A stretch of DNA of 64,000 nt, taken from Candidatus Poribacteria bacterium (GTDB taxonomy: Bacteria > Poribacteria > WGA-4E > WGA-3G). The DNA lies in the NCBI GenBank assembly GCA_965215265.1, contig OZ244048.1, positions 1,856,001-1,920,000 on the forward strand. The letters are read 5' to 3'. Below the pieces are notes generated by a model. It made no database searches, had not been told where the DNA came from, and saw only the letters and a program-made list of their open reading frames with translations. Of the stretch, positions 38,324-51,487 are shown piece after piece. Each line of letters starts with the position of its first letter. The first letter of the stretch is position 1. The position numbers were made by a program, and so were the translations under genes.

Positions 38324-38805
38324 CGTTTATTTCTTAAACCGATAAGTGTTGCAGGGCATTCACGCGTGTGGACGAGTTTCGTCTCTGAATTTATCTGTTT
38401 TTTCGTCCATAGTCACTCCAATATACACTAACGTGAGTTTGATAGAAACCGGGTGAATTTGCTCACAGTGAAAGAACGTCTCGTGGTATAATCAATACCT
38501 TCACGAAAGAAAACAGTGGATTTAACCGGCGAGTTATCCTAAAGTGAAGGTAAACAACTTCATCACTTTGAAAGCACAATTCCTCTCTAAAAACATTATA
38601 ACACATTTTGGCTGTTTGCAGCAATAGCGGTAAATGAGATTTTTTCTGGGCGACTCCGTCCTCGTTTTTTTTAGATTCCGTGGTAGGTTAAGGATAAAAA
38701 GAAAAAAATAATATTTTTGTCCAATTTTGTCTTTAATTTTCGTCATGTCATTATAGAAGGCAGCACATCAATTGCTGCGATAAGACGGACGGGAGGTAAA
38801 TCTGA

Positions 38806-39594
38806 ATGAATGAGGTAGAACTCAATCGGCATTTCTTAGAAACAGGGGACACAGACAGTTTCACGCGGATTTTTAAAAGGTATTACCACGGCGTGTTTAA
38901 GGCTGCGTTCCGCATTTTAAGAAATCCGCAGGATGCTGAGGAGGTTGCTAACGACACCTTCAGTAAAGCCTTCCAAGGGCGCGAAAACATCGTGCACCCG
39001 GAGAAGTTACCGGGGTGGTTATATAAAACCGCCCAGAATGTCGCGATTGATAGACGAAGAGCCGCTCTGAGCAGAGCAGACCACCTGCCAGAAGGTGCCC
39101 GGTTCGTCTCTTTAGATGCACTGCCACATGCCGAACAAGCGATAGGGTCAGCGTCTATTGACGCAGCGAGGCAGACAGAACAAGAGCAGGCCCGTCGCGA
39201 GCGATTGGCTCGACTCCTGCGCCTCCTTTCCGATATAGACTAGTCAATGATGGACCTCTTTTTAGACGGGTTCAAGCCTGTAGAAATAGCGGAAGCGTTA
39301 GGCTTAACGCCGGGTGCGACGCGAAAAAGACTGAAACCGGCGGAGGCGTGGTTAAGAAGCATCGCCCCGCAGTTGGAGGAGTTGCTCCGTTCTCTGCCTG
39401 CGGCAGAATTCAAAATAATGGAGCGGTATTTAGACGGACAATCTCCGGCGGAGATTGCCAAACATGTAGCTTTTTCCGCTCAAGCGGTGAGTGATAAAGT
39501 GGCGCGTGTGATAAAACAGTGGAGAACATCCACGAGAGAACCCGCCACGGTTTCATTCTCCACAAAGGTTCGTCGCAGAATTAACAGGGGATAG
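38806..39594 (+). pseudogene. ECF sigma factor with two tandem sigma-4 HTHs, interrupted by in-frame TAG at 39241
   Basis: DAEEVANDTF...GWLYKTAQNVAID (region 2); EIAEALG and EIAKHVA HTHs; the paralogue at ~47290 has CAG at the stop position; GGGAGG RBS. Confidence 0.88.
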
Positions 39595-39658
39595 AGATGT
39601 TAATGTATAGTGACTGCAAAACAGTATACGAAACTTGTTGTTTTTTTCATTGAATTTA
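38978..39658 (+). repeat. ~680 bp direct repeat, copy 1 (sigma gene plus downstream sequence)
   Basis: Near-identical to 47027-47707. Confidence 0.95.
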
Positions 39659-39842
39659 TTGAGAGGTGCGCCGAGGATGTCACTAGCAATCCTAGACGCT
39701 GCACTGCCATAACTTGGACAGCGTGAACCTAAGTTGTATTATAGAATGGATGCATTTTGTGGCACTTTTTGGTTAGCACCTTATAGGGAGATTATCAGAT
39801 CTTTCCTGACAGCAGTCCCCGAAAAATAAAGGAGAACATGAA

Positions 39843-40211
39843 ATGAAAATGTCTTTATGCCAGATAATTGCGATTGTCTGCATGCTCGTCGTAGGGTTCA
39901 TGACGGTTACACCTTTTGTGCCCCTCACGGAAGCAGGCTGGGATAGGGCTTCATCCCACGTCGTTACCGTCGATGTTTATGATATGTTTGATAACTACTG
40001 CGGTTCTTATGGGTACGGTTACTATGTGCCCGATACGACCACCACTCACTACAAGTATTATCACAGGGGCCCAACAACGCCTGATACTCATCCGCATCCA
40101 CATCTCGGGACTATCACAAGTACGCACTGGCATATAACGAGTAGAGACTTGGATACCTTGTGTGATGGAACTTACCCTATGTACGCATCGGGATCCTCGA
40201 CGAGTAGTTAA
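39843..40211 (+). CDS. Small secreted His/Tyr/Thr-rich protein (cassette protein A1)
   Basis: AAGGAG RBS, Sec signal ending TEA, THPHPH, two Cys in the mature part, Ser tail SSTSS. Confidence 0.8.
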   Translation: MKMSLCQIIAIVCMLVVGFMTVTPFVPLTEAGWDRASSHVVTVDVYDMFDNYCGSYGYGYYVPDTTTTHYKYYHRGPTTPDTHPHPHLGTITSTHWHITSRDLDTLCDGTYPMYASGSSTSS

Positions 40212-40240
40212 AACCGCAATCTGAAGCGTGTCAAAACGCC

Positions 40241-40272
40241 GACAGCGTTAAGAAGCCGTTCTTAACGCTGTC
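40241..40272 (+). terminator. Stem-loop between A1 and its partner gene
   Basis: GACAGCGTTAAGAA-GCCG-TTCTTAACGCTGTC, perfect 14 bp stem, no U-tract. Confidence 0.75.
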
Positions 40273-40294
40273 ACCCCTTAGAAAGGAAAAAACC

Positions 40295-40912
40295 ATGCGA
40301 ATTCTCGTTCCTTTTTTTATAGTTTGTGCACTTGCAATTGGATGGTCTCTCTATCTTGAGTATGACACAAACAAGTTCATCGACAGTCTGCCCAAGCCGC
40401 CAGCTCCTATAGACGAGACTGCCACGGATTCTCGAACGAATGAACAACCCGTCTTGGAAACAGAGGCGGCCCCTTCAGGAATAGATGAGTCCCCTGTCGT
40501 TTCGAGCACTGAAGAAACGGCGACGGCACCACATCCACAGCCGCATCCTCATGAACATCAGGACACCGTACAGATTCCTTTGAAGGACATTAACGATTGG
40601 AGAACGGATAGGAGACCTTATACACCACCTCAAGCAAAGCAGGATCCCTTTGTACAGAGAAAAGTGCCCTTTGAAGGGCTCAGAGAACGTCTTGTTGAAA
40701 AACATGGAGATATTCCAGAAGTTCATCAATATATAGAACTTCAGCGGAAACACCACAACAGGGAACAGCTGAGACAGGATGAGGTGATGACTTATTGGGA
40801 GTTAACGGTAAAATTCCATCCAACGAAGCGAAATCTAGAAACCTACGAACTGATAAAAAGGTTGACAGAAGCCGCAGATCCGGAGAGCTTCCACTTGGAG
40901 TATTATGACTAA
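40295..40912 (+). CDS. Membrane-anchored GDIPEV-family partner protein P1
   Basis: N-terminal TM plus YLEYDTNKFIDSLPKPP, PHPHEH linker, KHGDIPEVHQY domain. Confidence 0.85.
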   Translation: MRILVPFFIVCALAIGWSLYLEYDTNKFIDSLPKPPAPIDETATDSRTNEQPVLETEAAPSGIDESPVVSSTEETATAPHPQPHPHEHQDTVQIPLKDINDWRTDRRPYTPPQAKQDPFVQRKVPFEGLRERLVEKHGDIPEVHQYIELQRKHHNREQLRQDEVMTYWELTVKFHPTKRNLETYELIKRLTEAADPESFHLEYYD

Positions 40913-41120
40913 GCCTTCTTATCTTTATTCTTGAATTTCTCGCGCAGCGATAAGTACGTACATGGTGTGGAGTGTGGCCGTTGTGGTGGTGAGGTCTGGC
41001 CCTGCATTGCATTAATGATGATCATCACAAGAGTTCGTAAAATACTTAACAGAGGAGAGTAGAGATGTTAACGTATAGTGAATGCAAAACAGTAAATGTC
41101 CGAAACTTGTTGTTTTTTTG

Positions 41121-41149
41121 TTGACTTTAATGCAGGAGTGTGTTATACT
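41121..41149 (+). promoter_or_regulatory. Sigma-70-type promoter upstream of cassette protein A2
   Basis: TTGACT-17 bp-TATACT with extended -10 TG. Confidence 0.7.
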
Positions 41150-41184
41150 GTTTTACATCTCCTGCGAAATGAAAGGAGTTACTT

Positions 41185-41530
41185 TTGAAATCTATTTTCT
41201 TGAAACGCCTTGCGATTGTTATCATTCTCTCAGCCAGTTTGCTGGAGATGAGTCCCTTTTTGAAATGGCCCCCGACCTCGGATGCACATCCAGCTGAAAG
41301 GTGGTGGCATTTTCACCTCATTGTATGTGCAGAATGGGATGGAACAGACCACACCTACTGTAGCCACCCCCTATGAATTTAGTCTCCTCACTAGGGACCC
41401 GGAGCCAAACAACCCCAGCTCTGAGGATGATCCAAACCATAACGGGCACAGTCAGGTGGGGCTCCCTGATGTGCACACCTCTGAACTTGAACGCGTAGAC
41501 GATTGCGACGACTGCTCGACTTCGAGTTGA
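41185..41530 (+). pseudogene. Small secreted His/Cys-rich protein A2, +1 frameshift at a C5 run (41367-41371)
   Basis: AAGGAG RBS; signal ...TSDA|HPAERWWHFHLIVCAEWDGTDHTYCSHP joins YEFS...NHNGHS...VDDCDDCSTSS when one C is removed. Confidence 0.8.
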
Positions 41531-41631
41531 GCACAAAAACTCATCGACGCGTTAGGGGGGTACTCTCGCATGTGAGTGCCCCGCTCATTTGAAAACGCGT
41601 CGTGCAGCCGAAAAAGGAGAAAAGATTTCCT

Positions 41632-42366
41632 ATGCGTATTCTCTTTAGAATCACAATTGTCATTGTTGTGGCACTCCTTGGAGTGGCCATCTATACCACG
41701 CTTCGATCCCAAACGTTGATTCCAGCCGTCCCGCCATTGCAAGTTGAAAAATCCACACCGCTATTACAAGTTGAAAAATCCGCACCGTCTGAAAAATTGC
41801 CGACACCGTTAGACAGCGAACTCCCACGTGCGGAACAGCCCGCCGCAAGGTTCGAGGAGGTGTCAGACGAAGAACCGGTACCGGACACAACAGACCTCGC
41901 TCCCGATCCGGAAAACGCGGCATCGCCCCTCCCCGACTGGCGAACTGATGATGAAACGGCACAGCCCCAATCATCAGACCTGTGGCAGCAGGAAGACATG
42001 AGCATGAAATTTGTGGAGTGGGACGGATTGTCAGAAGACAAGCAGTTGAGTATTTTAGAGAAAGGGCTACTTCAGCAATACGGCGATACGCCGGCGGTCC
42101 GGAAGGTCATCGACTTTCAGAACAAACCGAAACATCTCCCTACACCAATTGATGATGCGATCGTCTTGGCCGAAGCGTTCCTTGAGTTGTGGCCAAGTGA
42201 AAAAGCGCGTCAAAATGTGATAGAGCTTAAAACGACTCAAAGCGGAGGGATTCGAAGGATTTCCGGGCGCACGACCGGCACCCTGAGAACATTGTCACGT
42301 ATTCGTTATCGGCGGGGTGCCCCTGGACGCGTTTCATCATTTTCCCTATCCTTGGAGATTCGGTAA
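41632..42366 (+). CDS. Membrane-anchored partner protein P2 (possible frameshift near 42230)
   Basis: TM, DWRTD motif shared with P1, QYGDTPAVRKV...LWPS; removing one A near 42230 gives the tail ELKRLKAEGFEGFPGARPAP* ending at 42286. Confidence 0.8.
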   Translation: MRILFRITIVIVVALLGVAIYTTLRSQTLIPAVPPLQVEKSTPLLQVEKSAPSEKLPTPLDSELPRAEQPAARFEEVSDEEPVPDTTDLAPDPENAASPLPDWRTDDETAQPQSSDLWQQEDMSMKFVEWDGLSEDKQLSILEKGLLQQYGDTPAVRKVIDFQNKPKHLPTPIDDAIVLAEAFLELWPSEKARQNVIELKTTQSGGIRRISGRTTGTLRTLSRIRYRRGAPGRVSSFSLSLEIR

Positions 42367-42604
42367 ATCCAGACGTGTGCCATGCCGTTGAGGACGGACA
42401 ACTGCTTCCAATTCTCCGTTGAGTGTCCCTGTCTGTGGACACGTCCGATTTGTGAGTCTCGGATATAGATGACTTCATATTGTGCATGAAGTATTATAGG
42501 CAGACTGACTGGATAAGCGTGTCCATCAAAATAGTGTTTATTGATTTGTGCGAAGGATACCGTATCTGTCTTTGTGCGCCAAGAAAAAATGAGGATATTT
42601 TTTG

Positions 42605-42633
42605 TTGACGCTTTTTCAGAAAAGTGTTATACT
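42605..42633 (+). promoter_or_regulatory. Sigma-70-type promoter upstream of cassette protein A3
   Basis: TTGACG-17 bp-TATACT with extended -10 TG; same layout as 41121. Confidence 0.7.
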
Positions 42634-42668
42634 TGACGAGGGTTAATCAAAGATAAGACAAGAGGAGC

Positions 42669-42934
42669 ATGAGGGACCTCTATCTTATCATCAATTTACC
42701 GAAAACCCTTAAACAAACGCGCATCCGAAACGCCTTGACTACACCCATACAACATATTGGTGTCATGAGAAATCGGGAGAGCTCCCGCGCTTTGTAAAAG
42801 TTGGAATTCCTCGAGGTCGCGTGCGGTGTGGCCTTGGGACGAGTGACGGTAATCACAAACCTCACTCTATCGAGAAAAATCAACATTCTTATGACAATGA
42901 GAGTTACACTGTCTCGAATTGTAGTAAATGCTAA
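42669..42934 (+). pseudogene. Degenerate secreted His/Cys-rich protein A3 (absent from the ORF track)
   Basis: AGGAG+ATG 42669; the frame from 42719 reads A|HPKRLDYTHTTYWCHEKSGE...GNHKPHSIEKNQHSYDNESYTVSNCSKC*, aligning with A2. Confidence 0.75.
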
Positions 42935-43006
42935 GCGTGTTTAATGTTACGTTGATGCAAGAGTGAAGAGACTCCTGCATCACTTGGCACTCAGAGGAGA
43001 ATTAAG

Positions 43007-43648
43007 ATGAGAAAATGGTTGATAGCATCTATAATCTTTGTCGCTTTTGCGGCTAGCGTTTTTATCTACACGCAGTGGGCGAACCGAAGATTTGCCGCCT
43101 CATTGCCAAAACTGCCACCTGTAGAACAACAATCTGTAGACACACATCCACACGATGCTTCACATCCGCATGAGGATCCCGTCCCTACAACACCCTCAAA
43201 CGCCAACGTGTTGGACACTCAAACGATTATCACAGAAAAATCAGTCTCCCCGGAAACGATTGCAGAGGAGAACGCGCAAGTGGCGACTGAGGAAGAAACC
43301 TTTTCTGTGGAAGAAAGCCCCCCGGCGCGGCTAACCGGTGATGAGCACGAGCATAAACCCACTAAGGACCCGTTTGCAAAGGAAATAAAACGGATTGATG
43401 ATATGGATGCAGATGAGTACAGAGAGATGATACTTGGCGGGCTACTTGAAAAATTCGGCGACATCCCCGAGGTTCACACATTTATGGAGTTTACCGTAAA
43501 AATAAGAAAGAAAGAGGAACTCAGCTTGGATGAACGCATTGAATTTACGAGCGCCCAGTACTATTTGTGGCCACACCCTGAAACCAAGAAAACGCTTGAG
43601 ATTTTCTTGAAGGAAAGAACCTCTGAAAACGTAAGGAGAACACAATGA
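43007..43648 (+). CDS. Membrane-anchored partner protein P3
   Basis: TM plus YTQWANRRFAASLPKLPP, HPHDASHPHE, EKFGDIPEVHTF...LDERI...LWP. Confidence 0.85.
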   Translation: MRKWLIASIIFVAFAASVFIYTQWANRRFAASLPKLPPVEQQSVDTHPHDASHPHEDPVPTTPSNANVLDTQTIITEKSVSPETIAEENAQVATEEETFSVEESPPARLTGDEHEHKPTKDPFAKEIKRIDDMDADEYREMILGGLLEKFGDIPEVHTFMEFTVKIRKKEELSLDERIEFTSAQYYLWPHPETKKTLEIFLKERTSENVRRTQ

Positions 43649-44145
43649 AATTTTTCAAGACGTTACTCGTTTTTTTTCTCTTTGTCACCGTGCTCTCGGG
43701 TTGCAGTGTGAGGCAGGGCAATGAACCTGACAAAAATGAACCGCTTCCAAACACAGCTGATGTCCGTGATAAACAAGCGGCTCCTAAAGCAGATTTTATC
43801 CCCGGGTTCCATCCGTTTAAGGATGACCCAGACAATCTGAGTCCGCACAATCCATTCGTCCGGAAGTTCGGGGATATCCCAGAAGTCCGCACCTATATCC
43901 GACTCAAGCGGAAACTGGGACTCGGACACGGACTGAACATTGATGAGGCAATAGAACTCTATACCGCAGAATACCACCTCTATCCCTCAGATACCACAAA
44001 AGCAAACTTAAAAAAGTGGAAAAAGGAAAAAGAACGATACATCAAACTGGGGATCGATATAGGTGGACCTGTACTCACTGACAGCAGATATCCGATCGTA
44101 GATGCGAGTGCTGAAGAGCAGGCAGACACGAAATCGGAGGATTAA
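43645..44145 (+). CDS. Lipoprotein carrying the GDIPEV domain (P4)
   Basis: Lipobox LSGC; RKFGDIPEVRTY...IDEAI...LYP; ATGA overlap with P3. Confidence 0.85.
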   Translation: MKFFKTLLVFFLFVTVLSGCSVRQGNEPDKNEPLPNTADVRDKQAAPKADFIPGFHPFKDDPDNLSPHNPFVRKFGDIPEVRTYIRLKRKLGLGHGLNIDEAIELYTAEYHLYPSDTTKANLKKWKKEKERYIKLGIDIGGPVLTDSRYPIVDASAEEQADTKSED

Positions 44146-44302
44146 TCTCCTTGAAAAGAAGGCATACGTCAAGTCTGAACTTTACCCATTGGGTCGTGCC
44201 ACGTTTCTTACCCATGGTAGCAATACTTTTGGAACACCGGGCGAGAAAAACGGGGATCAGGAAACATTCTGGAACAATGGCTAGCATTTAGAGGAAAAAA
44301 AG

Positions 44303-46080
44303 TTGGATGTGTCCGGAAAAAAAAGACTTGGAGAACGGGCAGCATCGCCGCCCGCTTATTAGGTTATCTCAAACCGTATTGGGGGTTAGCCCTGCTGTGT
44401 GTGTTCCTCTATGTCGGTTTCCGGGCCACCTACTTCGTCAACCCCTGGGTGGAAGGGCAACTTCTTGACCGCGTCTTTGGTGAAAAAGATGCCGACTTTC
44501 TACTCGTCCTGGTGGTTTTCTGGATGGGTATTGCGCTTGCCACTTATCTCCTAAATCTGGGTTTGTCGTCTTTTGTATCCAAGGTCACCGGTCAAACTCG
44601 CCGGGATATGCAACTGCAAGTCTACCAACATCTGCGCTTTTTGCCCAGCCGTTTTTACGACGACCACACAACGGGACAGATTATGGCTTACGTCAATTCC
44701 GATACAACGTCCGCTGCGGAAGGGATTTTGGCAAGCGGATGGATTCTCCTCGCAGGGGTTGAATTTGCCATGACTCTATTTGTTATGTTCTGGGTGAATC
44801 CCTGGTTGGGCCTTTTTAGTATTCCTTTTGCCTTTGCTGTGGTTTGCCTTCCGGTTCTTTTGCGAAGGCCTGTGCAAAACGCGTCAAAGCAGGTCTTGCA
44901 GGAAAGAGAAAAGATTTCATCACGGCTCCAAGAAGGAATCGCCGGGTCACGAGAGATTAAATCTCTCGGGCATGAGATGCGAGACATGGGGTTTATCCGC
45001 CGTTCAATAGATACCCTTGTCCGGGCAGAAGTCTATCAAACGATTATTGGGTGCCTAACAGGAGTTAGTATCTTTTCTTCTTGGTTTGGCAATGCCCTTT
45101 TCTTCCTCATCGGTGGGAAAATGGTGCTCGACGGGCACATCAGCGTCGGTTTTCTGTGGATGGCAAACCGGTATTTGAATCTGCTCACCTACCCCTTACA
45201 TCAAGTCCAAAATGAATATCAAAAACTCCTCCGAACCGGAGAAGCAGCAAAACGTGTGTTTGCTTTCCTCGACGAAAACCGAACCGAACCGAAAGATGGA
45301 CTTGTTTCTGTCACTTTACAAGGAAAGGTCCGGTTTGAAAACGTCTACTTCACCTACAATGAAAACGCGGAAGTCCTCCAGGACGTTAATTTTGAGGTGG
45401 TGCCAGGGCAACTGGTGGCACTCGTAGGTCCCAGCGGTGCAGGGAAAAGCACCCTCCTTAACCTCATTCCACGTTTCTACCAACCCACCCGAGGACAGAT
45501 TTATGTTGATGAGCACGATATCACGACACTCAACCTGAGTACCCTCCGCGCTCAGATTGGCACAGTGTTTCAAGACCCTTATCTCTTCTCTGGTTCGATT
45601 GAGGAAAATATCCGAATGGGGGCTCGGCATCCAGAGGCTGTGAAAACGGCGGACATTGTTGCTGCTGCCACGGCTGCAAACGCCCATGGATTTATCACGC
45701 AATTCAAAGACGGATACGCGACAGAGATAGGGGAGCGAGGCATCAAACTCTCCGGTGGCGAGCGGCAACGGATTGCTATTGCTCGTGTGCTGATGCGGGA
45801 TCCGAACATTCTCCTGCTAGATGAAGCCACTTCTGCGCTGGACTCAGAGACAGAGCAGGTTGTGACGGAGGCGTTGGAGCGGTTGATGCGAGGACGGACA
45901 TCGTTTGTTATCGCACATCGGTTGTCTACCGTGCTGAATGCGGATGTGATTCTGGCCGTGGAAGACGGCAACATTGTGGAACAAGGCACGCATCAGGAGC
46001 TGCTGAATCAAGGTGGACTCTATGCCCGGTTGTATCACTTACAATTTGCGGCACCTGCTGGCTACTCAAAAGAGCAATAA
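44303..46080 (+). CDS. ABC exporter, fused permease/ATPase (MsbA/Sav1866-like, no C39 peptidase)
   Basis: GPSGAGKS, LSGGERQR, LLLDEATSALD, IAHRLST; frame is open upstream of 44401 (RLLGYLKPYW), with a likely start at TTG 44303 and a slip in an A8 run. Confidence 0.88.
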
Positions 46081-46403
46081 CCGATTCATCGTTGTAAAGT
46101 CCTTCGGTGTCGAGTTATGAAATACTCAAAATCTCTTCAACTTTCAATCCCCGAACATGTGCGTTCGGTCCGTTTTGATGAAAAAGATGGACTTCCTTCG
46201 TCAGTAACCGTTTTAAATTACGAAACCGGAGAATTTTACGCTTTAGATAAAGTTGGTTTTGATTTTTGGTGTCTTGTTGAAAAAAAAAGCGTCTAGAAGA
46301 AATTGTCACTGCGTTAATCTCAACATACGACATTAGCGCAGACCAACTCTGGATAGATAATGATGGATAAAAAATTGAATCTTAAAGGCGTTGGAGACAC
46401 GAT

Positions 46404-46967
46404 ATGCGTTTTGATTGAAGGGGTATTCATTGGGCTCTCTGCAATCCGTGCAAACAAGATGCGCTCTTTGCTCACTCTGCTCGGGGTCATCATCGGTGTC
46501 GCCTCGGTGCTTTTGAGATGCGTTTAGCCATGGCGCAGTTGGAAAAAATCAGTCAAGTCATAAAGATTACACTCGGCAGCATTGCGGGCTTTTCGCTGCT
46601 TGTCGGCGGCATCGGCATTATGAATATGATGTTAGTCGCCGTGAGTGAAAGAACGCGCGAAATCGGACTCCGGAAAGCCCTCGGTGCAAAGCGCCTAGAC
46701 ATTCTGGTGCAGTTTCTCCTGGAAGCCGTTGTGATGTGTGGCGTAGGTGGCACGATTGGCGTTGCGGTGGGCATCCTTGCCGGCCAAGGCATGGCACGGC
46801 TTGCTGTCAAAATCGTCAAAATCGTCCCTGAATGGCCGGCAGTCCTCTCGACAGAATGGATGTTGATATCGGTCTCCTTTTCAGCACTCATCGGTATCGG
46901 CTTTGGGTTGTATCCTGCGATAAAAGCATCATCGCTCTCGCCGATGGATGCCTTACGCACAGATTAA
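46404..46967 (+). pseudogene. MacB/FtsX-like ABC permease with the periplasmic domain deleted
   Basis: N-terminal AIRANKMRSLLTLLGVIIGVASVL joined out of frame near 46514 to C-terminal LLVGGIGIMNMMLVAVSERTREIGLRKALGA. Confidence 0.85.
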
Positions 46968-47026
46968 CTCCTGATGATTTACCACCCCATGATACGACGA
47001 AAACACAAAATGATGAACGTGACGCT

Positions 47027-47707
47027 GGCGTGAAAACATCGTGCACCCTGAGAAGTTACCGGGGTGGTTATATAAAACCGCCCAGAATGCCGCGATTAAT
47101 AGACGAAAAGCTGCTCAGAGCAGAGCAGACCACCTGCCAGAAGGTGCCCGGTTCGTCTCTTTAGATGCACTGCCACATGCCGAGCAAGCGATAGGGTCAG
47201 CGTCTATTGACGCAGCGAGGCAGATGGTACAAAAGCAGGAAAGGCGCGAGCGATTGGCTCGACTCCTGCGCCTCCTTTCCGGTAGGGACCAGTCAATGAT
47301 GGACCTCTTTTTAGATGGGTTCAAGCCTATAGAGATAGCGGAAGCGTTAGGCTTAACGCCGGGTGCGACGCGAAAAAGACTGAAACCGGCGGAGGCGTGG
47401 TTAAGAAGCATCGCCCCGCAGTTGGAGGAGTTGCTCCGTTCTCTGCCTGCGGCAGAATTCAAAATAATGGAGCGGTATTTAGATGGGCAATCTCCGGCGG
47501 AGATTGCCAAACATGTAGCTTTTTCCGCTCAAGCGGTGAGTGATAAAGTGGCGCGTGTGATAAAACAGTGGAGAACATCCACGAGAGAACCCGCCACGGT
47601 TTCATTCTCCACAAAGGTTCGTCGCAGAATTAACAGGGGATAGAGATGTTAATGTATAGTGACTGCAAAACAGTATACGAAACTTGTTGTTTTTTTCATT
47701 GAATTTA
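47027..47707 (+). repeat. ~680 bp direct repeat, copy 2
   Basis: Near-identical to 38978-39658. Confidence 0.95.
47041..47643 (+). pseudogene. 5'-truncated copy of the ECF sigma factor
   Basis: Lacks the first ~57 codons (most of region 2) but has no internal stop. Confidence 0.85.
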
Positions 47708-47885
47708 AGGTAGGTAATGTGATAAGATAATTCACGTCTCCTGCAAGTAGTTTTTAGAACAACCTTAGCTAGGACAAGCAAAGCCAAGGCATGGACTTTG
47801 TCTATGCCTCTGCTTACACCTTCGATCCTTACCACCAATCTAGCCCCGCACGGCGGTGTGCCACACTAACAGAGAGGATAAACAA

Positions 47886-48395
47886 ATGCGCCTTTTTTAC
47901 CTGATTTGTATCGGCATTGTCCTTCTTAGCGGTATTGGAAGTCTATACTTGTATCTGGATACGAAACGGTTTTCTGAAAATCTTCAAAAAACCCCACACC
48001 GGTTAAAAGCGTTGACAGGCGCTCCTACAACGCTTCAGGAAAAAATTGAGCGTGCGGAAGCGAGCAACAAGTTGTTTCCGAATCCAACAACGCAAAGAAC
48101 TCTTACCCAACTCTATGCCGCTCGCTCTTACGAGATTGATAAAATCATGCCGTTTGTAGATACCCCGAAAGATGAACGTTTCGCAGATGTCATTCCGTTC
48201 TTTGAGGGAAAACGTCCGGAGGAAGGGTTCCGGGCCCTGAGAGCGGTCAGCCCGAATCGCGCTGCGGAGCTTGAACAGTTTCTGCTGCAGGAAAGCGAAA
48301 AAAAATCCTTCGTCCTAGTAGAGTTTGTCTCATTAAAGGTGAAAGACGATTGCCGGTCCGGTCCTTTTTCGTCACAGAATCTGAATGTTGTTTAG
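47886..48395 (+). CDS. Partner protein P5 (apparently internally deleted)
   Basis: TM plus YLYLDTKRFSENL, then directly LQEKIERAEASNKLFPNPTTQRTL; linker and GDIPEV are missing. Confidence 0.7.
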   Translation: MRLFYLICIGIVLLSGIGSLYLYLDTKRFSENLQKTPHRLKALTGAPTTLQEKIERAEASNKLFPNPTTQRTLTQLYAARSYEIDKIMPFVDTPKDERFADVIPFFEGKRPEEGFRALRAVSPNRAAELEQFLLQESEKKSFVLVEFVSLKVKDDCRSGPFSSQNLNVV

Positions 48396-48469
48396 ATATC
48401 CAACAAATTTAGCGTGAGGTGTACTCTCTTGCTGTGCACCTCACGTGCCGCCAGATAAAGGAGATAAAA

Positions 48470-49279
48470 ATGCGTTACTTGACACTCATTGTTGTTAGTT
48501 TTATTGTCTTAATAGCGGCTGGAAGTATCTACCTCTATATAGATACAAAACGGTTTATTGAGAATTCCGTGCAACCTCCAAGACAAGACACTACACCCCC
48601 TGAGGGCTCGCCTTCTCTTCAAAATCAACTTTCGGAGCACACCGTCCCCCCATTGGATACACCGTCAACTCCCCCAACGCAGAGGAAAAACGGGACTGAG
48701 CCAGTCGAATGGTGGGACGATGGGGCAGATGCAGAGCAGACTCACGCCCATGGAGATGCATCGAAACAGAATCAGACCTCTGACATCAAAGAGGAAGAAA
48801 GTGTTAATTGGCTGGACCTTACAACCCCGTATGAGCGAGCAGACGCTTTACGCGCCTCACTCCTCAGACAGTTTGGAGATGTCCCCGAGGTGGATGCTGT
48901 TGTAGAAGGATTTTTAAATGTATGGACGCAGACATCGATGGACACAGCTGAACGTCTCCGGTTCAATAGAGCCCTAAACACCTTCTGGCCAGCCGAAAGT
49001 ACACAAAAAGTGATTGAATATCTCGAAACAGGAAAACTCCCCACTCACACTCAACCGAGTGGGCCATTCCTGAATCTTCGACATCAATTCCCTGACTTCG
49101 AACCATTCGTGGCGGAGTATGGATTTGAAGCAGGGGTTCTCAGGTTTGCGGAGCAGAATCCAGAGAGAGCCCTTGAATTTAAACGGGCCCTCTGGCAAAC
49201 GCATGAAGTTCAAAGCCGGCTTGAAGAAATGTCTGAGGAGGCCAGAAGGTTTTTCAAGGAAATCACATCACAAGAGTAA
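48470..49279 (+). CDS. Membrane-anchored partner protein P6
   Basis: AAGGAG RBS; TM plus YLYIDTKRFIEN, HAHGD, RQFGDVPEV...FWP. Confidence 0.85.
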   Translation: MRYLTLIVVSFIVLIAAGSIYLYIDTKRFIENSVQPPRQDTTPPEGSPSLQNQLSEHTVPPLDTPSTPPTQRKNGTEPVEWWDDGADAEQTHAHGDASKQNQTSDIKEEESVNWLDLTTPYERADALRASLLRQFGDVPEVDAVVEGFLNVWTQTSMDTAERLRFNRALNTFWPAESTQKVIEYLETGKLPTHTQPSGPFLNLRHQFPDFEPFVAEYGFEAGVLRFAEQNPERALEFKRALWQTHEVQSRLEEMSEEARRFFKEITSQE

Positions 49280-49297
49280 ACAATGAGACAACATTTC

Positions 49298-49410
49298 ACT
49301 CCGTCTCTGCCTGAGGCAGAATTCAAGATAATGGAGTGGTATTTGGATGGACAATCTCCTGATGAGATTGCCAAACATGTTGCTCTTTCCCCTCAACGGG
49401 TGTGATAAGC
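49298..49410 (+). pseudogene. Third, diverged fragment of the ECF sigma gene (second HTH)
   Basis: TCTCTGCCTGAGGCAGAATTCAAGATAATGGAGTGGTATTTGGATGGACAATCTCC...GAGATTGCCAAACATGT aligns to ~39391-39498. Confidence 0.85.
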
Positions 49411-49450
49411 AAGTTGCGAGATAGGTTATCTTTTTCTCGCAACCCACTAG

Positions 49451-49630
49451 GTGGAGAAAAATAGATATGCTGGTTCTGAATGTTCAAGCGTAATATGGTT
49501 GTATACAGTCTGGTCCTATGAGGAAACACGAACTTACACAGATGGCGAGGGACACTGCGGGGCCGTGCATGTGATCGTTGCAGCTACCCCATGTGGCCTC
49601 TGCGACTCTTGTGAAGGATCTTCTTCTTAG
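49451..49630 (+). pseudogene. C-terminal remnant of a Cys-rich cassette protein (A4)
   Basis: Reads ...ECSSVIWLYTVWSYEETRTYTDGEGHCGAVHVIVAATPCGLCDSCEGSSS*, the same CxxC plus Ser tail as A2; an R2 repeat sits where the 5' end should be. Confidence 0.6.
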
Positions 49631-49762
49631 TCCCTAGCGCGAGCAGGGTGGGGATCCGCGGGAGATTGAGGAACTTGTTTTGAAAGCAATTCGTGATGAT
49701 GATAAAGAGGAGGAGAAGGAGTCCGTTGAGGAGGAAGGTGATATTTAGAGTCAATACATCGA

Positions 49763-49830
49763 ACGGCTCAGACGAGATTTACACACGAGTTATCATTACA
49801 TAGGCGTTGATGGTACGGAGATATACGAAT
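49763..49830 (+). repeat. Dispersed repeat family R1 copy
   Basis: GGCTCAGACGAGATTTACACACGAG...CGTTGATGGTACGGAGATATAC. Confidence 0.85.
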
Positions 49831-50031
49831 ATTTGACGAAAAATGCTATTTTTGATTCATAACCTAGCACTGCTTTGGCGAGATTTGTAAAGATTTTAGA
49901 AAAACATAGAGCGTTGATGTGCTACAGTATACAAAAAGGCGTTTTTCCTCATGAAACTTGACTGCGTTCCTGAGACACACTGCAATTGTCCGATGGATGT
50001 CTCAGGGATGCATAAACAAAGGAAAATTCTA

Positions 50032-50694
50032 ATGAAAAAAGTGATTTTCACTGCGATACTCTCACTCGTTTTGGGCACGGCTTGGATGCTCTACTTGGAG
50101 TCTGATAATAGGCGGTTTATAGAGCAGCTTCCGAAACTACCTGCCAATGTTACACGACCCGTTGACACCGCCGATGCCCCTGTAACGCCAGAAAGCGGCG
50201 AAACCATTACCACAGCCACCTCTCCCTTAGAACCCGCGTCTGACACCCAAGTTGCGGACAGGTTCACAGAGCGAGTCCCTGTCCAGCCGGAGACATACAC
50301 GGACGGAACCTCACAAACAGAGACGACAGATTTTCTGTCTGAAGAGAACATGTCTGAAACAGTTTTTGAAGATGTTGCTGAGCGTTCCACGCGTCTTTCA
50401 GCGAAAGAGTTTCTTATGAAAGAGTTGGGACTCTCTGAGGCAGAAATAGATGCCAAGAAAGAAGCGTATAAGGATCTAAACAGACTGTTTTGGGCGAAAC
50501 CCGAAAATTGGGCAAGCGGCCGGCCGGGTGAGGTAGGTTTTCGATTCGAAGTCTGGACGAAAGAAGATCATGAAGTGATTCGGCGAGCACTTGGTTCTCC
50601 GCCCTTGCCCCCTGCACTGCCCGAGCAAACGCCAGCTGTGAAGATGCGTGAACCCCAGTTACCTGCACACGAAGTTTTCCCTGAAGACGATTGA
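50032..50694 (+). CDS. Membrane-anchored partner-like protein P7 (same N-terminus, different C-terminal domain)
   Basis: TM plus YLESDNRRFIEQLPKLP as in P1/P3; no GDIPEV motif. Confidence 0.8.
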   Translation: MKKVIFTAILSLVLGTAWMLYLESDNRRFIEQLPKLPANVTRPVDTADAPVTPESGETITTATSPLEPASDTQVADRFTERVPVQPETYTDGTSQTETTDFLSEENMSETVFEDVAERSTRLSAKEFLMKELGLSEAEIDAKKEAYKDLNRLFWAKPENWASGRPGEVGFRFEVWTKEDHEVIRRALGSPPLPPALPEQTPAVKMREPQLPAHEVFPEDD

Positions 50695-50915
50695 TGACGG
50701 TATTCAAGAGCTTGCTGCGGTGTGATGTCAGTCATGCCGCGGAGATTCTCGTCGTTTTAGGTTCATTTCTGCTTGTGTGTGTGCCACGCGTAATCTCTTT
50801 AGATGCACATGGGTCTAGTGGTGAAGCAAAGTGGTTACTCCGGAGCGCGCAGTTCATGTCTACTGTCAAGCAGGTGAGTTCTCTGAAACCCTCATCATAC
50901 ATCACCCTGGTGTGA
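50691..50915 (+). pseudogene. Probable degenerate cassette protein A5
   Basis: Hydrophobic signal ending SLDA|HGSSGE; alternate frame VHVYCQAGEF; followed by a hairpin at 50930-50972. Confidence 0.5.
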
Positions 50916-51009
50916 CGACGATGTGGCTTGCGTTAGAAGAAAACCCTTTGAAAAGGGTTTTCTTTCTAACGCACCTTTTTTATGGAGCCGTGCCTGAATG
51001 TTGAGAACC

Positions 51010-51412
51010 TCCCAGTGGGTTGCGAGTAAAAGGTTAGCTTTTCTGTCCTTCAGGACAGAAAAAGAATACCTATCTCGCAACTTTTGAAAAGTTAAGTCCT
51101 GATTCTATTACCGACGATATGGATGGCTACTCTATCTTCCCGAGCCACGAGCGGCGGAATGGGCAGAACAGTGAGTCTAAAAACTCTACGAGTCGCCCTA
51201 CCGGCATCGGATCTCATTGCAACATTACATAATAGTGTTTCCTGATTCGCAGGACACGTGACAACTGCCCAATGGGTGGCGAGTAAAAGGTTATCCCAAT
51301 GGGTGGCGAGTAAAAGGTAGCATAACGTGTCCTTCAGGACACGCGTAAACTACCTATCTCGCAACTTTTCTGTCCTTCAGGACAGAAAAAGAATACCTAT
51401 CTCGCAACTTTT
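51010..51412 (+). repeat. Cluster of R2 repeat copies (MITE/REP-like)
   Basis: CCCA.TGGGT.GCGAGTAAAAGG x3 and TGTCCTTCAGGACA...TACCTATCTCGCAACTTTT x3. Confidence 0.85.
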
Positions 51413-51487
51413 TTGCCTTCATGTAAACCTGCATCTCGTTTTTTGCGTTAGATTTGTTTAGTTTAGGGCAAAATTGACAAATCCATT

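Follow-up and report, generated by a model that had tools for sequence, protein, structure and literature searches.

TPR modules recruit acceptors in the TMTC and OGT glycosyltransferases, and TPR domains are what the partner proteins described here weakly resemble. The window analyzed, 64,000 nucleotides of a contig of the sponge symbiont Candidatus Poribacteria bacterium, carries an island where a lineage-specific gene pair has been duplicated and in part broken; in this pair, the gene for a small exported His/Cys-rich protein (A) is followed by that for a membrane-tethered helical partner (P). Neither family matches a Pfam or NCBIfam model, in agreement with a sequence-only reading of this DNA, which had recognized neither and had also placed the ORFs correctly. 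The cassettes are real, and mostly decayed in the window.

With respect to distribution, that reading's guess of Poribacteria was right: 57 of 61 related loci come from entries titled Poribacteria and the other four from one MAG titled "uncultured bacterium"; with that one exception, both families are restricted to Poribacteria MAGs in the collections searched.

Results

A is predicted to be a Sec-exported, His/Cys/Tyr-rich beta protein of roughly 70-95 residues after signal-peptide removal, hence a small protein and not the peptide suggested earlier. His, Cys, and Tyr make up 6.0%, 5.1%, and 8.3% of mature A versus 2.6%, 1.3%, and 3.2% in the genome's long ORFs, and alignments of both A subfamilies have fully or almost fully conserved His and Cys columns. 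Some A-like proteins have no Cys at all and are still His-rich. Predicted signal cleavage leaves His as the first mature residue in many members, although this N-terminal His is not universal. A profile built from other loci (A1's own locus included, A2 and A3 left out) matches A1, the N-terminal half of A2, and the mature part of A3 (E 1.7e-28, 9.1e-8, and 4.6e-10).

P is predicted to be periplasmic, with an N-terminal anchor or lipoprotein signal and a C-terminal four-helix "GDIPEV" domain of about 70 aa. This domain (~74 aa in the iterated HMM) is common to P1, P2, P3, P4, and P6 (domain E 1.5e-20 to 6e-27) and was found genome-wide 26 times in 22 ORFs. The proposed homology of members is supported for these five P and for A1, A2, and A3, and unsupported for A4 and A5. 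Only about 2-8 residues of P lie on the cytoplasmic side, judging from the sequences; P4-type members carry a lipoprotein signal, and in the lipoprotein forms the domain is periplasmic. P linkers contain 5.2% His and about 20% Asp+Glu. Furthermore, the anchor motif is conserved across proteins with differing C-terminal domains (9 ORFs in genome G000), and another A subtype is found with anchored partners of a second kind, which bear a C-terminal "YGPEEGL" motif (L094, L107, L113). Across genomes, orthologues of A and of P remain fairly stable (A1, five clusters at 57-63% identity by BLASTP; P3, 39-75%).

Only one cassette in the window, A1-P1, is fully intact:

39843..40211, + strand, A1, intact small exported protein of 122 aa with signal peptide (A profile E 1.7e-28)
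40241..40272, + strand, A1-P1 intercistronic stem-loop, 14 bp, no T run after it
40295..40912, + strand, P1, N-terminal membrane anchor, His/acid-rich linker, and GDIPEV domain (domain E 1.5e-23; anchor motif E 9e-6)

Two Cys and several His are invariant among A1 orthologues, with W, D, H, and C columns conserved. For the stretch 40209-40297 the folding energy is -29.6 kcal/mol (z -6.76), a stability reached by 0 of 200 shuffles.

The next two cassettes are damaged:

41026..41179, + strand, sigma 3'-end remnant and sigma-70-type promoter-like site before A2, with 77-83% identity to the 3' end of each of the three sigma copies (repeats D4, D6)
41185..41530, + strand, A2, frameshifted, one frame encoding the signal peptide and N-terminal half, another the CxxC-bearing C-terminal part
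41545..41602, + strand, A2-P2 stem-loop (z -4.44; 0/200 shuffles as stable)
41632..42366, + strand, P2, anchored GDIPEV protein with atypical C-terminal tail (domain E 1.5e-20)
42669..42934, + strand, A3 pseudogene, mature part recognizable, signal peptide lost (A-profile positions 29-104 only, E 4.6e-10)
42953..42981, + strand, A3-P3 stem-loop, conserved in orthologous loci (z -2.95)
43007..43648, + strand, P3, anchored GDIPEV protein (database matches at E<=1e-3: 27 proteins, counting the window's own)
43645..44145, + strand, P4, lipoprotein-type GDIPEV protein, signal ending LSGC (domain E 1.6e-25; 4-nt overlap with the P3 stop)

The frame of A2 splits at a C5 run (41367-41371); its first frame covers A-profile positions 2-57 (E 9.1e-8), and the other matches positions 73-104 weakly (E 0.16). 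In A3 a TAA (42710-42712) stands just upstream of the profile match, and a third-frame piece (42769-42843) matches positions 53-69 weakly (E 1.1); A3 probably contains internal frame changes as well. Intact A3 orthologues lie upstream of P3 orthologues, e.g., in L024, L028, L031, and L032. P2 carries a 27-nt tandem duplication (41731-41784, repeat D7). The AF2 model of P3 has a transmembrane helix (3-32), a disordered stretch (39-116), and four helices (135-212) at pLDDT mostly above 90; HPHPHE-type runs are conserved among its orthologues, and the P3/P4 overlap of 4 nt recurs in several related loci (e.g., L023, L025, L027-L029, L033). In four public runs (three samples of one study, the source sample possibly among them), contigs match 39827-44088 with 0 differences and 0 gaps; the lesions in A2 and A3 are hence not errors of this assembly alone. 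By the same absence of sequence variation in the contigs of these three samples, strong within-population polymorphism is not seen.

The recurring unit proposed earlier (promoter, A, stem-loop, ribosome-binding site, P) is thus partly borne out: stem-loops, Shine-Dalgarno-like runs upstream of cassette gene starts, and homologous sigma-70-type promoter-like sites before A2 (41121-41149, TTGACT-17-TATACT) and A3 (42605-42633), which together form repeat D6, are present, whereas A2 is frameshifted and A3 has lost its signal peptide. The region's total of sigma-70-type sites is not above shuffles (14 versus 14.4). For the stem-loops, z is -6.8 (A1-P1), -4.4 (A2-P2), and -2.95 (A3-P3) against 200 shuffles each, and 10 of 11 intergenic stretches folded gave z between -1.8 and -6.8, the exception being the one after A4 (+0.3). 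In a 10-locus alignment of the A3-P3 hairpin, five of seven predicted pairs are preserved in one or more loci where both bases have changed; the hairpin between A and P is conserved.

Sigma and transporter genes surround and interrupt the array:

38806..39594, + strand, ECF-like sigma copy 1, region 2 and two region-4-like HTHs (Pfam Sigma70_r2 1.6e-11, Sigma70_r4_2 1.7e-10)
44401..46080, + strand, MsbA/HlyB-like ABC half-transporter, no peptidase domain
46117..46296, + strand, 59-aa ORF, faint PqqD-like match (Pfam PqqD E 0.11, below threshold), possibly a gene fragment
46360..46967, + strand, MacB/FtsX-like permease in two frames (MacB model positions 247-287 and 512-646 only; FtsX 1.3e-19)
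47027..47643, + strand, sigma copy 2, 5'-truncated, 96% identical to 38978-39658
49299..49408, + strand, third sigma fragment, 110 nt, region 4 only, 87% identical to the other copies

Sigma copies do bracket the array, as had been claimed, but both are defective: copy 1, about 90% identical to an intact 262-aa copy at genome 2411261-2412049, has an in-frame nonsense change relative to the other two copies (CAG>TAG, 39241-39243), and copy 2 is without about the first 60 codons, i.e., most of region 2. The ABC exporter and MacB-like permease, earlier taken for parts of the module, are damaged in the window, were not found beside A/P in the 61 related loci, and are not conserved module parts. 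No ATG, GTG, or TTG lies upstream of the exporter's first membrane helix, and a chimeric gene at genome 2886504-2886743 shares 97% identity with the exporter's 3' end (45849-46088); the permease gene consists of two fragments, with the periplasmic domain absent. The exporter stands where relatives' cassette runs on into an STT3-like glycosyltransferase gene. Duplications, deletions, and fragments give the island a mosaic structure.

Downstream lie the putative remnants:

47886..48395, + strand, P5, copied recently from a P gene at genome 2.0015-2.0025 Mb (partial domain E 2.9e-11)
48470..49279, + strand, P6, anchored GDIPEV protein with extra C-terminal extension (domain E 3.8e-21)
49451..49630, + strand, "A4" ORF, Cys-rich, not supported as an A-family member
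50032..50694, + strand, P7, N-terminal anchor/juxtamembrane motif only (anchor HMM E 3.2e-6), C-terminal part different
50691..50915, + strand, "A5" ORF, unsupported

P6 keeps the domain; P5 is 97-99% identical to its source gene, with an internal deletion of about 333 nt that took the first half of the domain; and P7 has the anchor, with no GDIPEV match in the iterated HMM. Neither "A4" nor "A5" matches the A profile at E<=10. The 3' end of "A4" fails to align with A1 or A2, and folding against shuffles gave no hairpin after it; "A5" has no paralogue by tblastn. The sequence-only reading had called all five remnants of the array.

The same reading had made adjacency of A and P in other genomes its check, and adjacency was found. 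The A-profile search covered 61 genomes of the family, with matches in 17; 13 of the 16 strong matches from other genomes (E<=5.6e-12) are followed immediately by a GDIPEV gene on the same strand, and the remaining three show an anchor motif and then a contig end, a contig end, and a 368-aa opposite-strand gene between A and P. In G000, all five A-profile matches adjoin a gene for an N-terminally anchored protein (three intact GDIPEV, one frameshifted P-like, one 388-aa anchored partner of the second type). Viewed from P, an A lies alongside in at least 17 of the 61 loci, with none in the remainder; genomes of genus g2 have 13-17 P matches and no A-profile match. Disrupted A genes beside intact P occur in the window (A2, A3), L023, L036/L106, and L102/L112.

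Discussion

As the best reading, held tentatively and at less than even confidence, we propose that A acts as an effector, abundant and exported, for which P serves in the periplasm as the cognate holder or an immunity-like partner, the island being a duplicated, decaying array of a Poribacteria-specific operon type. The operon would run from an optional tandem-region-4 ECF-like sigma gene through a sigma-70-type promoter of its own, A, the stem-loop, and P (often an anchored P, then a lipoprotein P) to, in relatives, the STT3-like GT-C glycosyltransferase; the earlier observation that modifying enzymes are lacking applies to this window but not to that operon. By stabilizing or partly terminating the A message, the stem-loop may let A be made in excess over P. 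Exported by Sec and cut after a small-x-small site, A would fold in the periplasm as a small beta protein, disulfide cross-linked in most subfamilies, and P, facing the periplasm and held at the inner membrane by its N-terminal helix or lipid anchor, would bind its own A through the four-helix TPR-like domain and neutralize it, in effector-immunity-like logic. Such protection would mean that A needs a P, with P genes persisting as orphans and tandem arrays.

For one cognate pair (L024; A residues 31-129, P residues 105-217), complex prediction gave a score of 0.51 versus 0.00 for the best of three controls, a value in the range in which a pass is wrong more often than not, unless the pair is likely to begin with. 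Among 80 solved complexes 58 attained the mark, as did two of 110 mismatched pairs, with only seven of the 80 and both passing mismatches at 0.60 or under; these counts hold only roughly here, as the pair was run with its own alignments. The runs agree in at least 65% of contacts (partner pLDDT at least 68). As a whole, the prediction weakly suggests that A binds its cognate P and lends that much to the ligand/cognate-partner idea of the sequence-only reading. Against an effector with immunity, A and P match no toxin, bacteriocin, or immunity family and no solved fold, no conserved outer-membrane route or lysis gene lies beside the cassettes in the 61 loci, orthologues are fairly stable, some A-like proteins are without Cys, and an immunity role leaves unexplained the recurrent STT3-like gene, the sigma gene, and P's conserved membrane/juxtamembrane motif.

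It is improbable that A and P have no specific partnership and are co-transcribed envelope proteins of a fast-evolving lineage-specific repertoire, with segmental duplication and decay producing the array. The mosaic island, the many P genes without A, and the weakness of the binding prediction fit this, but P follows A in 13 of 16 strong cases with contig ends or an inserted gene explaining the others, the hairpin is conserved with compensatory changes, and the second A subtype has its own kind of anchored partner. Metal handling is likewise doubtful: A would be a periplasmic metal-binding protein, with the mature N-terminal His of many members, other conserved His, and the C-terminal CxxC as candidate ligands, and the His/acid-rich linker of P would pass or buffer the metal. 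His enrichment in mature A and P linkers, the near-invariant His/Cys columns, the HPHPHE-type runs, and the His-rich Cys-less proteins speak for it; against it, no metallochaperone family or fold matched A or P, the N-terminal His is not universal, no recurrent metal pump or metal regulator was found near P loci, and multi-copy, fast-diverging, often pseudogenized genes would be unusual in metal homeostasis. We consider it very unlikely that A is a secreted cue sensed by P as an extracytoplasmic TPR-like receptor that signals via a membrane partner to the neighboring ECF-like sigma. An ECF-type sigma is the commonest other neighbor (18 genes in 12 of 61 P loci), G000 has three sigma-A units, the order sigma-A-P-A also occurs in genus g2 (L005), and of the 27 orthologous sigma loci that have an ORF downstream, 21 encode a protein with a hydrophobic N-terminal segment in one of the first two genes after sigma. 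However, the short cytoplasmic side of P cannot hold a sigma factor, a domain search found no anti-sigma domain, the sites before A2 and A3 are sigma-70-type and not ECF-type, an A-profile match follows only three of 30 sigma loci examined, and P genes remain intact in the window with both bracketing sigma copies defective.

Somewhat unlikely, too, is that P is a membrane-tethered TPR-like recruiter for the STT3-like GT-C enzyme, docking to it via the conserved membrane/juxtamembrane motif, with each variable C-terminal domain presenting its own acceptor A, or the Thr/Ser/Pro-rich linker of P. The STT3-like gene occurs in seven of 61 P loci, following A-P-P on the same strand 12 nt past P4 in L023 and L024, although the seven are not independent, being one orthologous locus in related genomes; most A-P loci have no such gene within 5 kb. 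G000 has 10 STT3-like genes or gene fragments, of which four have a P-type gene no more than about 1 kb away, the order varying from case to case (STT3-A-P at 4.49 Mb; A-P-STT3 chimera at 2.885 Mb; P, then an STT3 fragment, at 2.453 Mb; STT3-like beside the anchor-only gene at 2.824 Mb), but these four may be copies of one segment and hence not independent; an STT3 fragment-P arrangement occurs in another genus (L006). The anchor motif kept across differing C-terminal domains, and the many P genes versus only one or two intact STT3-like genes in G000, are in line with an adaptor, whereas the L024 enzyme is without the WWD motif and N-x-S/T sequons are not enriched in mature A (16 observed versus 20.3 expected, 36 sequences).

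Compared with known systems, then, the effector and cognate partner that we prefer would share their logic with effector-immunity pairs. The STT3-like gene scores 2.1e-16 with Pfam STT3 and 1e-19 with TIGR04154, far below that model's cut-off, and the GDIPEV profile finds its best solved-structure match in a designed consensus TPR (E 0.0019), TPR domains also forming the top Foldseek rows, all at E>1.

Gene content of the island

A and P are two lineage-restricted, uncharacterised protein families with a clear, conserved operon grammar, in which an exported small protein is followed by a stem-loop and a tethered helical partner. Here A stands for the genes of small, Sec-exported proteins rich in His, Cys and Tyr, P for those of their N-terminally anchored or lipoprotein partners, and sigma for an ECF-like sigma gene with two region-4-like helix-turn-helix (HTH) domains. 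The genome (G000) is one contig of 4.83 Mb, of which the window covers bases 1856001-1920000; window content was read from the ORF listing, a three-frame reading and the DNA itself.

Features of the island (window coordinates)
38806-39594, + strand: sigma gene, copy 1
39843-40211, + strand: A1
40295-40912, + strand: P1
41185-41530, + strand: A2, split over two frames
41632-42366, + strand: P2
42669-42934, + strand: A3
43007-43648, + strand: P3
43645-44145, + strand: P4, overlapping P3 by 4 nt
44401-46080, + strand: ABC half-transporter
46117-46296, + strand: 59-aa ORF between the ABC gene and the MacB-like fragments
Downstream of the 59-aa ORF, + strand: MacB/FtsX-type permease, two fragments
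47027-47643, + strand: sigma gene, copy 2, 5'-truncated
After sigma copy 2, + strand: P5, P6, third sigma fragment, candidate A4, P7 and candidate A5

Within the window, Pfam assigns names to the sigma, ABC and FtsX parts alone, and all A and P genes are without a match in Pfam and NCBIfam scans. Rfam at the gathering threshold returned no match in 38000-52000, and a sigma-54 promoter pattern was dropped, as it matched 37 times in the window against 33.8 expected. We also observe a 27-nt tandem duplication within P2 (41731-41784, 89% identity), which repeats a nine-residue stretch of the linker, and a faint PqqD-like match (E 0.11) in the 59-aa ORF at 46117-46296, which could derive from a decayed peptide-maturation gene.

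The P family

An HMM built from the C-terminal ~74 residues of P1, P2, P3, P4 and P6, iterated to convergence on the six-frame ORFs of the genome, found 26 domains in 22 ORFs. The domain, of about 70 residues and called GDIPEV here, has a near-invariant core of G-D-I-P-x-V with L-x-P ~30 residues later. With respect to its distribution, P3 has 27 database matches at E ≤ 1e-3 (its own entry included), none of which carries a Pfam domain, and among 31 genomes of the order it is matched in 13 of 18 from the window's own family and in none of 12 from three other families. A back-translated pattern scan of 185,579 species genomes yielded 61 loci; the record title says Poribacteria for 57 of these, and the remaining four belong to one MAG titled "uncultured bacterium". 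Searched against 1.84 billion representatives (one protein per 50%-identity cluster), the GDIPEV profile reached E ≤ 0.001 for 374 proteins and E ≤ 1e-10 for 221 of them. The best 150 of the 374 span just 67-351 residues, so there is no large fusion partner among these 150 listed matches.

In the AF2 model of P3, a membrane helix (3-32) leads through a disordered linker (39-116) to four helices (135-212), for which pLDDT is mostly >90. P4-type members have a lipoprotein signal ending in LSGC in place of the membrane helix, which places the GDIPEV domain outside the cytoplasm. The membrane helix and the motif next to it (aromatic-x-x-aromatic ... R/K-F ... L-P-x-P) are conserved in P, and this anchor motif is common to proteins with other C-terminal parts, including P7 (nine ORFs of the genome, four with GDIPEV). 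The linker is rich in Pro, Thr and Ser and contains 5.2% His and about 20% Asp plus Glu. The sole hints at a fold, taken from profiles and a predicted model, suggest that the domain may be TPR-like. The GDIPEV profile weakly matched a designed consensus TPR among solved-structure sequences (a single row, E 0.0019 over 23 positions), and the Foldseek list for P3 is headed by TPR domains, yet at E 1.2 or more. No Pfam family matches the domain at E ≤ 0.01, structure searches with P3 gave no significant match (Foldseek E ≥ 1, VIA Z ≤ 5.5), and its ESM Atlas rows, at 0.79 or less, are all unnamed clusters.

Two further observations concern P-type genes. A second C-terminal motif family (...RFNRA...YGPEEGLRRLK..DPE...) occurs on N-terminally anchored proteins of 130-450 aa in loci L094, L107, L113, L015, L018, L023, L029 and L046, directly downstream of an A-profile gene in L094, L107 and L113 and beside an STT3-like gene in L018. 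Moreover, a two-gene unit, in which a P with one domain precedes a lipoprotein P with two, is present in the genome in four near-identical copies, which points to a recently multiplied segment; an A-like gene at 2914630 comes after one of them.

Copies of the two-gene P unit (genome coordinates)
2298917-2300039: two-gene P unit
2629468-2630914: two-gene P unit
2697154-2698276, - strand: two-gene P unit
2912999-2914508: two-gene P unit

The A family

In other genomes, the gene upstream of P3 orthologues encodes a protein of 105-130 aa whose signal peptide is well conserved and has a small-x-small cleavage site, often followed by His as the first residue; of its four conserved Cys, the last two form a CxxC near the C-terminus. 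A profile made from these proteins, with added matches from other genomes, scores A1 at E 1.7e-28, the N-terminal half of A2 at 9.1e-8 and the mature part of A3 at 4.6e-10. For A1 itself, BLASTP gives five clusters of orthologues at 57-63% identity, in which many W, D, H and T columns and two C columns are invariant. His, Cys, Tyr and Trp are over-represented in mature A, so the description of these proteins as His/Cys-rich in the sequence-only reading is borne out, and "mini-protein" suits them better than "peptide", given the ~70-95 residues left once the signal peptide is removed. Candidates A4 and A5 of that same reading are dropped from the family, having no match to the profile at E ≤ 10.

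The AF2 model of A (pLDDT 72) shows a signal helix, a long beta hairpin and two short strands, with a C-terminal helix in the subgroup of the related locus L024. It has no significant match among solved folds (Foldseek E ≥ 1, VIA Z ≤ 3.5), the A profile finds nothing below E 0.7 among solved-structure sequences, and the ESM Atlas gave no usable match for A1.

Pairing of A with P and the intervening stem-loop

Across 61 genomes of the family, the A profile matched in 17. For 13 of the 16 matches at E ≤ 5.6e-12, a GDIPEV gene lies directly downstream on the same strand; the remaining three are followed by the P anchor motif and then the contig end, by the contig end, and by an opposite-strand 368-aa gene between A and P. 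Taking all 30 fetched A loci (29 distinct places), the domain is encoded downstream in 18 (17 places), and in three more (L094, L107, L113) the next gene is for the second anchored protein kind, with the YGPEEGL motif at its end. Seen from the other side, A stands beside P in at least 17 of the 61 P-centred loci and is absent from the others. Genomes of another genus have 13-17 P matches each and zero A-profile matches; in one of its loci (L005), sigma is followed by P flanked on both sides by small, His-rich exported proteins without Cys. A is thus nearly always accompanied by P, and P is often alone or in tandem, an asymmetry of adjacency that follows from both counts.

The stretch between A and P is predicted to fold in most cases, with 10 of 11 folded intergenic stretches more stable than their shuffles. 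In the window, z is -6.8 for A1-P1, -4.4 for A2-P2 and -2.95 for A3-P3, and the stretch after candidate A4 shows no stable fold against shuffles (z +0.3); in the other loci, z is -4.2 (L028), -5.7 (L031), -6.4 (L032), -3.9 (L035), -4.0 (L041), -2.8 (L024) and -1.8 (L048). The alignment of A3-type intergenic stretches (10 loci) has a predicted 7-bp core, in which five pairs are kept through two-sided changes in at least one locus. Because no T run follows any of the three A-P stem-loops of the window, they are probably partial terminators or message-stabilising elements, and by either action A would outnumber P.

Recurrent neighbours

In the related loci L023 and L024, the order is A, anchored P, lipoprotein P and, 12 nt after P4, an 800-aa STT3-like GT-C protein (Pfam STT3, 2.1e-16). 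This A-P-P-STT3 arrangement is found in seven of the 61 loci, all representing one orthologous locus. The window contains no STT3-like sequence between P4 and the ABC gene. The L024 locus ends at a homologue of the window's 2207-aa protein (of its C-terminus), so that the neighbourhood is syntenic and the A3-P3-P4 site next to that gene is probably ancestral, with the STT3-like gene replaced here. The 2207-aa protein itself (51488-58111, + strand) has low-complexity stretches rich in Gly, Tyr and Ser and matches SprA_N below threshold (E 6e-6; 25.9 bits, cut-off 27).

Elsewhere in the genome, P-type genes are found within ~1 kb of four of the 10 STT3-like genes or fragments, in differing orders, with STT3, A-like and P following one another at 4.49 Mb. 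Of the set, one copy is intact and close, one is a distant paralogue (30% identity) and about eight are fragments, including a chimera in which an STT3-like 5' part is joined to the 3' end of an ABC transporter. WWD and WWE are absent from the one protein examined (799 aa, L024), and N-x-S/T sequons are not enriched in A (16 observed against 20.3 expected from shuffles, 36 mature sequences).

STT3-like GT-C genes and fragments
L024, 6264-8663: STT3-like gene
Genome, 4494357-4496420: STT3-like gene, intact
Genome, 2885638-2886504: STT3-like gene or fragment
Genome, 2453307-2453742: STT3-like gene or fragment
Genome, further places: others of the set

ECF-type sigma is the commonest other neighbour of P (18 genes in 12 of the 61 loci). 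The window's own sigma carries the two domains of an ECF factor (Sigma70_r2, 1.6e-11; Sigma70_r4_2, 1.7e-10) and, beyond the ECF norm, an additional second region-4-like HTH; its intact paralogue matches TIGR02937 at 3.5e-24. Exported or anchored proteins are encoded downstream of sigma genes with two such HTHs in 21 of 27 loci having a downstream ORF, and an A-profile protein in 3 of 30 sigma orthologue loci examined. No anti-sigma family was matched, and the proteins downstream of sigma have few residues before their membrane helix.

ECF-like sigma proteins of ~260 aa with two consecutive region-4-like HTHs are encoded at 2411261-2412049 of the genome (L014/L114) and in loci L115-L143, and full-length orthologues at 35-47% identity occur in many genomes of the family. 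They are often followed, 2-25 nt on, by a protein of ~250 aa whose membrane helix comes after only ~8 residues. Many open frames of ~900-1060 aa, several per genome, start with an ECF sigma-like domain (query residues 2-196), for example in genomes G034, G036, G038 and G070; in these, a very long C-terminal region is fused to the sigma domain.

Decay and mosaicism in the window

The module is largely degenerate in this window, where none of the sigma copies has an intact frame: copy 1 is interrupted by a CAG>TAG change (TAG at 39241-39243), copy 2 is without its 5' part (~the first 60 codons, most of region 2) and the third piece measures ~110 nt. Downstream of the sole intact sigma copy of the genome, at 2.41 Mb, come genes for a 93-aa A-like protein and an anchored protein of 388 aa. 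As 150 nt of a sigma 3' end survive ahead of A2, each cassette probably originated as sigma-A-P. In A2 the frame shifts at a C5 run, the signal peptide of A3 is gone, and P5 copies a distant gene almost identically, apart from a deletion of ~333 nt. Outside the window, A genes are mostly intact; disrupted A stands beside intact P in L023/L108, L036/L106 and L102/L112, and in L010 a P4 signal carries a fused A remnant.

The ABC exporter and MacB-like permease, which the sequence-only reading had noted in the array, were discarded as parts of the system, being damaged here and not conserved beside A or P in the 61 loci. The ABC gene has no canonical start ahead of its first helix, and its 3' end recurs at 2.886 Mb (97% identical), fused to the initial ~290 codons of an STT3-like gene. 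The MacB-like gene covers model positions 247-287 and 512-646 only, in two frames and with the periplasmic domain missing.

Over 39827-44088, the sequence is reproduced exactly by contigs of four public runs (from three samples of one study); at 49826-49879, public-run contigs break or join differently. Short interspersed repeats lie at 49728-49830, 51008-51085 and 51265-51412, the first with well over a hundred genomic copies (75-97% identity) and the other two with dozens, and inverted copies of the second kind (49411-49454 and 51008-51083) flank the segment of P7 and candidate A5. The window illustrates the rapid duplication, recombination and decay of such cassettes.

Possible functions of the A/P module

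P would bind its own A in the periplasm, a proposal based on the asymmetric adjacency, the conserved hairpin, the periplasmic tethering of the helical domain and a weak complex prediction (0.51 for the cognate pair against 0.00 for the best of three controls, with our own alignments). We tentatively regard an effector with a protective partner as the best fit, because A decays while P persists and P forms orphan arrays; the STT3-like gene, the sigma gene and the conserved anchor motif are left unexplained by it. All three would be accounted for if A were the acceptor and P the adaptor of the STT3-like enzyme, a reading that comes without any sign of glycosylation and that we consider rather doubtful. 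In an extended and still less probable form, the P proteins would form a set of exchangeable mini-TPR adaptors, docked at the membrane and serving one bacterial STT3-like GT-C enzyme, each encoded with its own secreted acceptor A. If true, a bacterium would thereby possess a protein-glycosylation system that is split, modular and served by multiple adaptors, that has expanded among sponge symbionts and that is linked to an unusual ECF-like sigma factor carrying two region-4 domains.

Metal handling by A and P, to which composition and the conserved His and Cys alone point, is unlikely. Neither protein has a sequence or fold match to metallochaperones of the CusF/CopC kind. Mere co-expression of A and P would fit the mosaic nature of the island but is at odds with the conservation, and we hold it to be similarly improbable. 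Signalling to sigma, for which a transducer is lacking, appears the least probable. Compared with these, effector and protective partner continues to be our preferred, if tentative, reading.

Poribacteria are uncultivated sponge symbionts, in which most lineage-specific genes have no assigned role. Two protein families without Pfam or NCBIfam match are defined here, together with their recurrent neighbours, the STT3-like enzyme gene and the ECF-like sigma gene with two region-4 domains, and A1-P1, along with better-preserved pairs in relatives, offers a concrete pair for study. Either an effector-immunity or a modular glycosylation system, if true, would bear on symbiont competition or envelope shaping inside the host.

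Comparison with known systems

The titles and opening lines of abstracts that we considered contain no description of this module. Colicin M/Cmi and type VI periplasmic effectors with Tsi/Tai-type immunity involve anchored or lipoprotein immunity proteins that face the periplasm. Like effector- or bacteriocin-immunity operons, the module has a secreted-protein gene followed by a hairpin and a gene for a small, tethered, periplasm-facing protein; its paralogues are diverged, P genes are also orphan and tandem, A decays while P stays, and the downstream gene is conserved across genomes (13 of 16), as in immunity pairs. Unlike in such operons, no toxin or immunity family or fold is recognised in A or P (no Pfam/NCBIfam match; best rows Z 3.5 for A and Z 5.5 for P), A carries a plain Sec signal, with no dedicated exporter, lysis gene or secretion-system context, and genes for an STT3-like enzyme and sigma recur nearby. 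The module also differs from peptide bacteriocins and RiPPs, since the signal of A is Sec-type and the window is without a modifying enzyme; the ABC protein aligns to bacteriocin and HlyB models only past their peptidase region, and the PqqD-like ORF reaches only E 0.11. Nor does the window hold, in one frame, the FtsX part and large periplasmic domain of a MacB-type permease.

TPR-assisted glycosyltransferases include GT-C enzymes with luminal TPRs, such as TMTC, and OGT. The module resembles these and STT3/PglB/AglB in that one operon encodes a GT-C STT3-like enzyme, small secreted proteins and helical, possibly TPR-like modules that lie outside the cytoplasm. It differs in that the helical module is a separate small protein instead of a fused repeat array, and, with respect to STT3/PglB/AglB, in that the enzyme examined is without the WWD motif and A without sequon enrichment. 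CnrYXH is an ECF sigma module with a periplasmic sensor protein; here too, small envelope proteins, among them an N-terminally anchored, helical, His-bearing one, are encoded next to an ECF-type sigma gene, whereas no anti-sigma with a cytoplasmic domain was recognised, a second region-4-like domain is present and both window copies of sigma are defective.

In RRNPP cassettes (Rap-Phr, NprR-NprX, PlcR-PapR), a secreted pro-peptide gene lies beside a TPR receptor gene, and NprR is among the non-significant structural rows for P3 (Z 4.9). Both kinds of cassette pair a small Sec-exported product with a helical-repeat partner, a possible one in the case of P, in a multiplying, diverging two-gene unit. 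In contrast to RRNPP, P keeps its helical domain on the extracytoplasmic side and is without an output domain; A, at roughly 70-95 residues, is a folded protein and not a short peptide, the two genes come in the opposite order, and the module belongs to a Gram-negative lineage. Without membership in any tested family, the A/P module resembles effector-immunity or ligand-receptor two-gene cassettes most.
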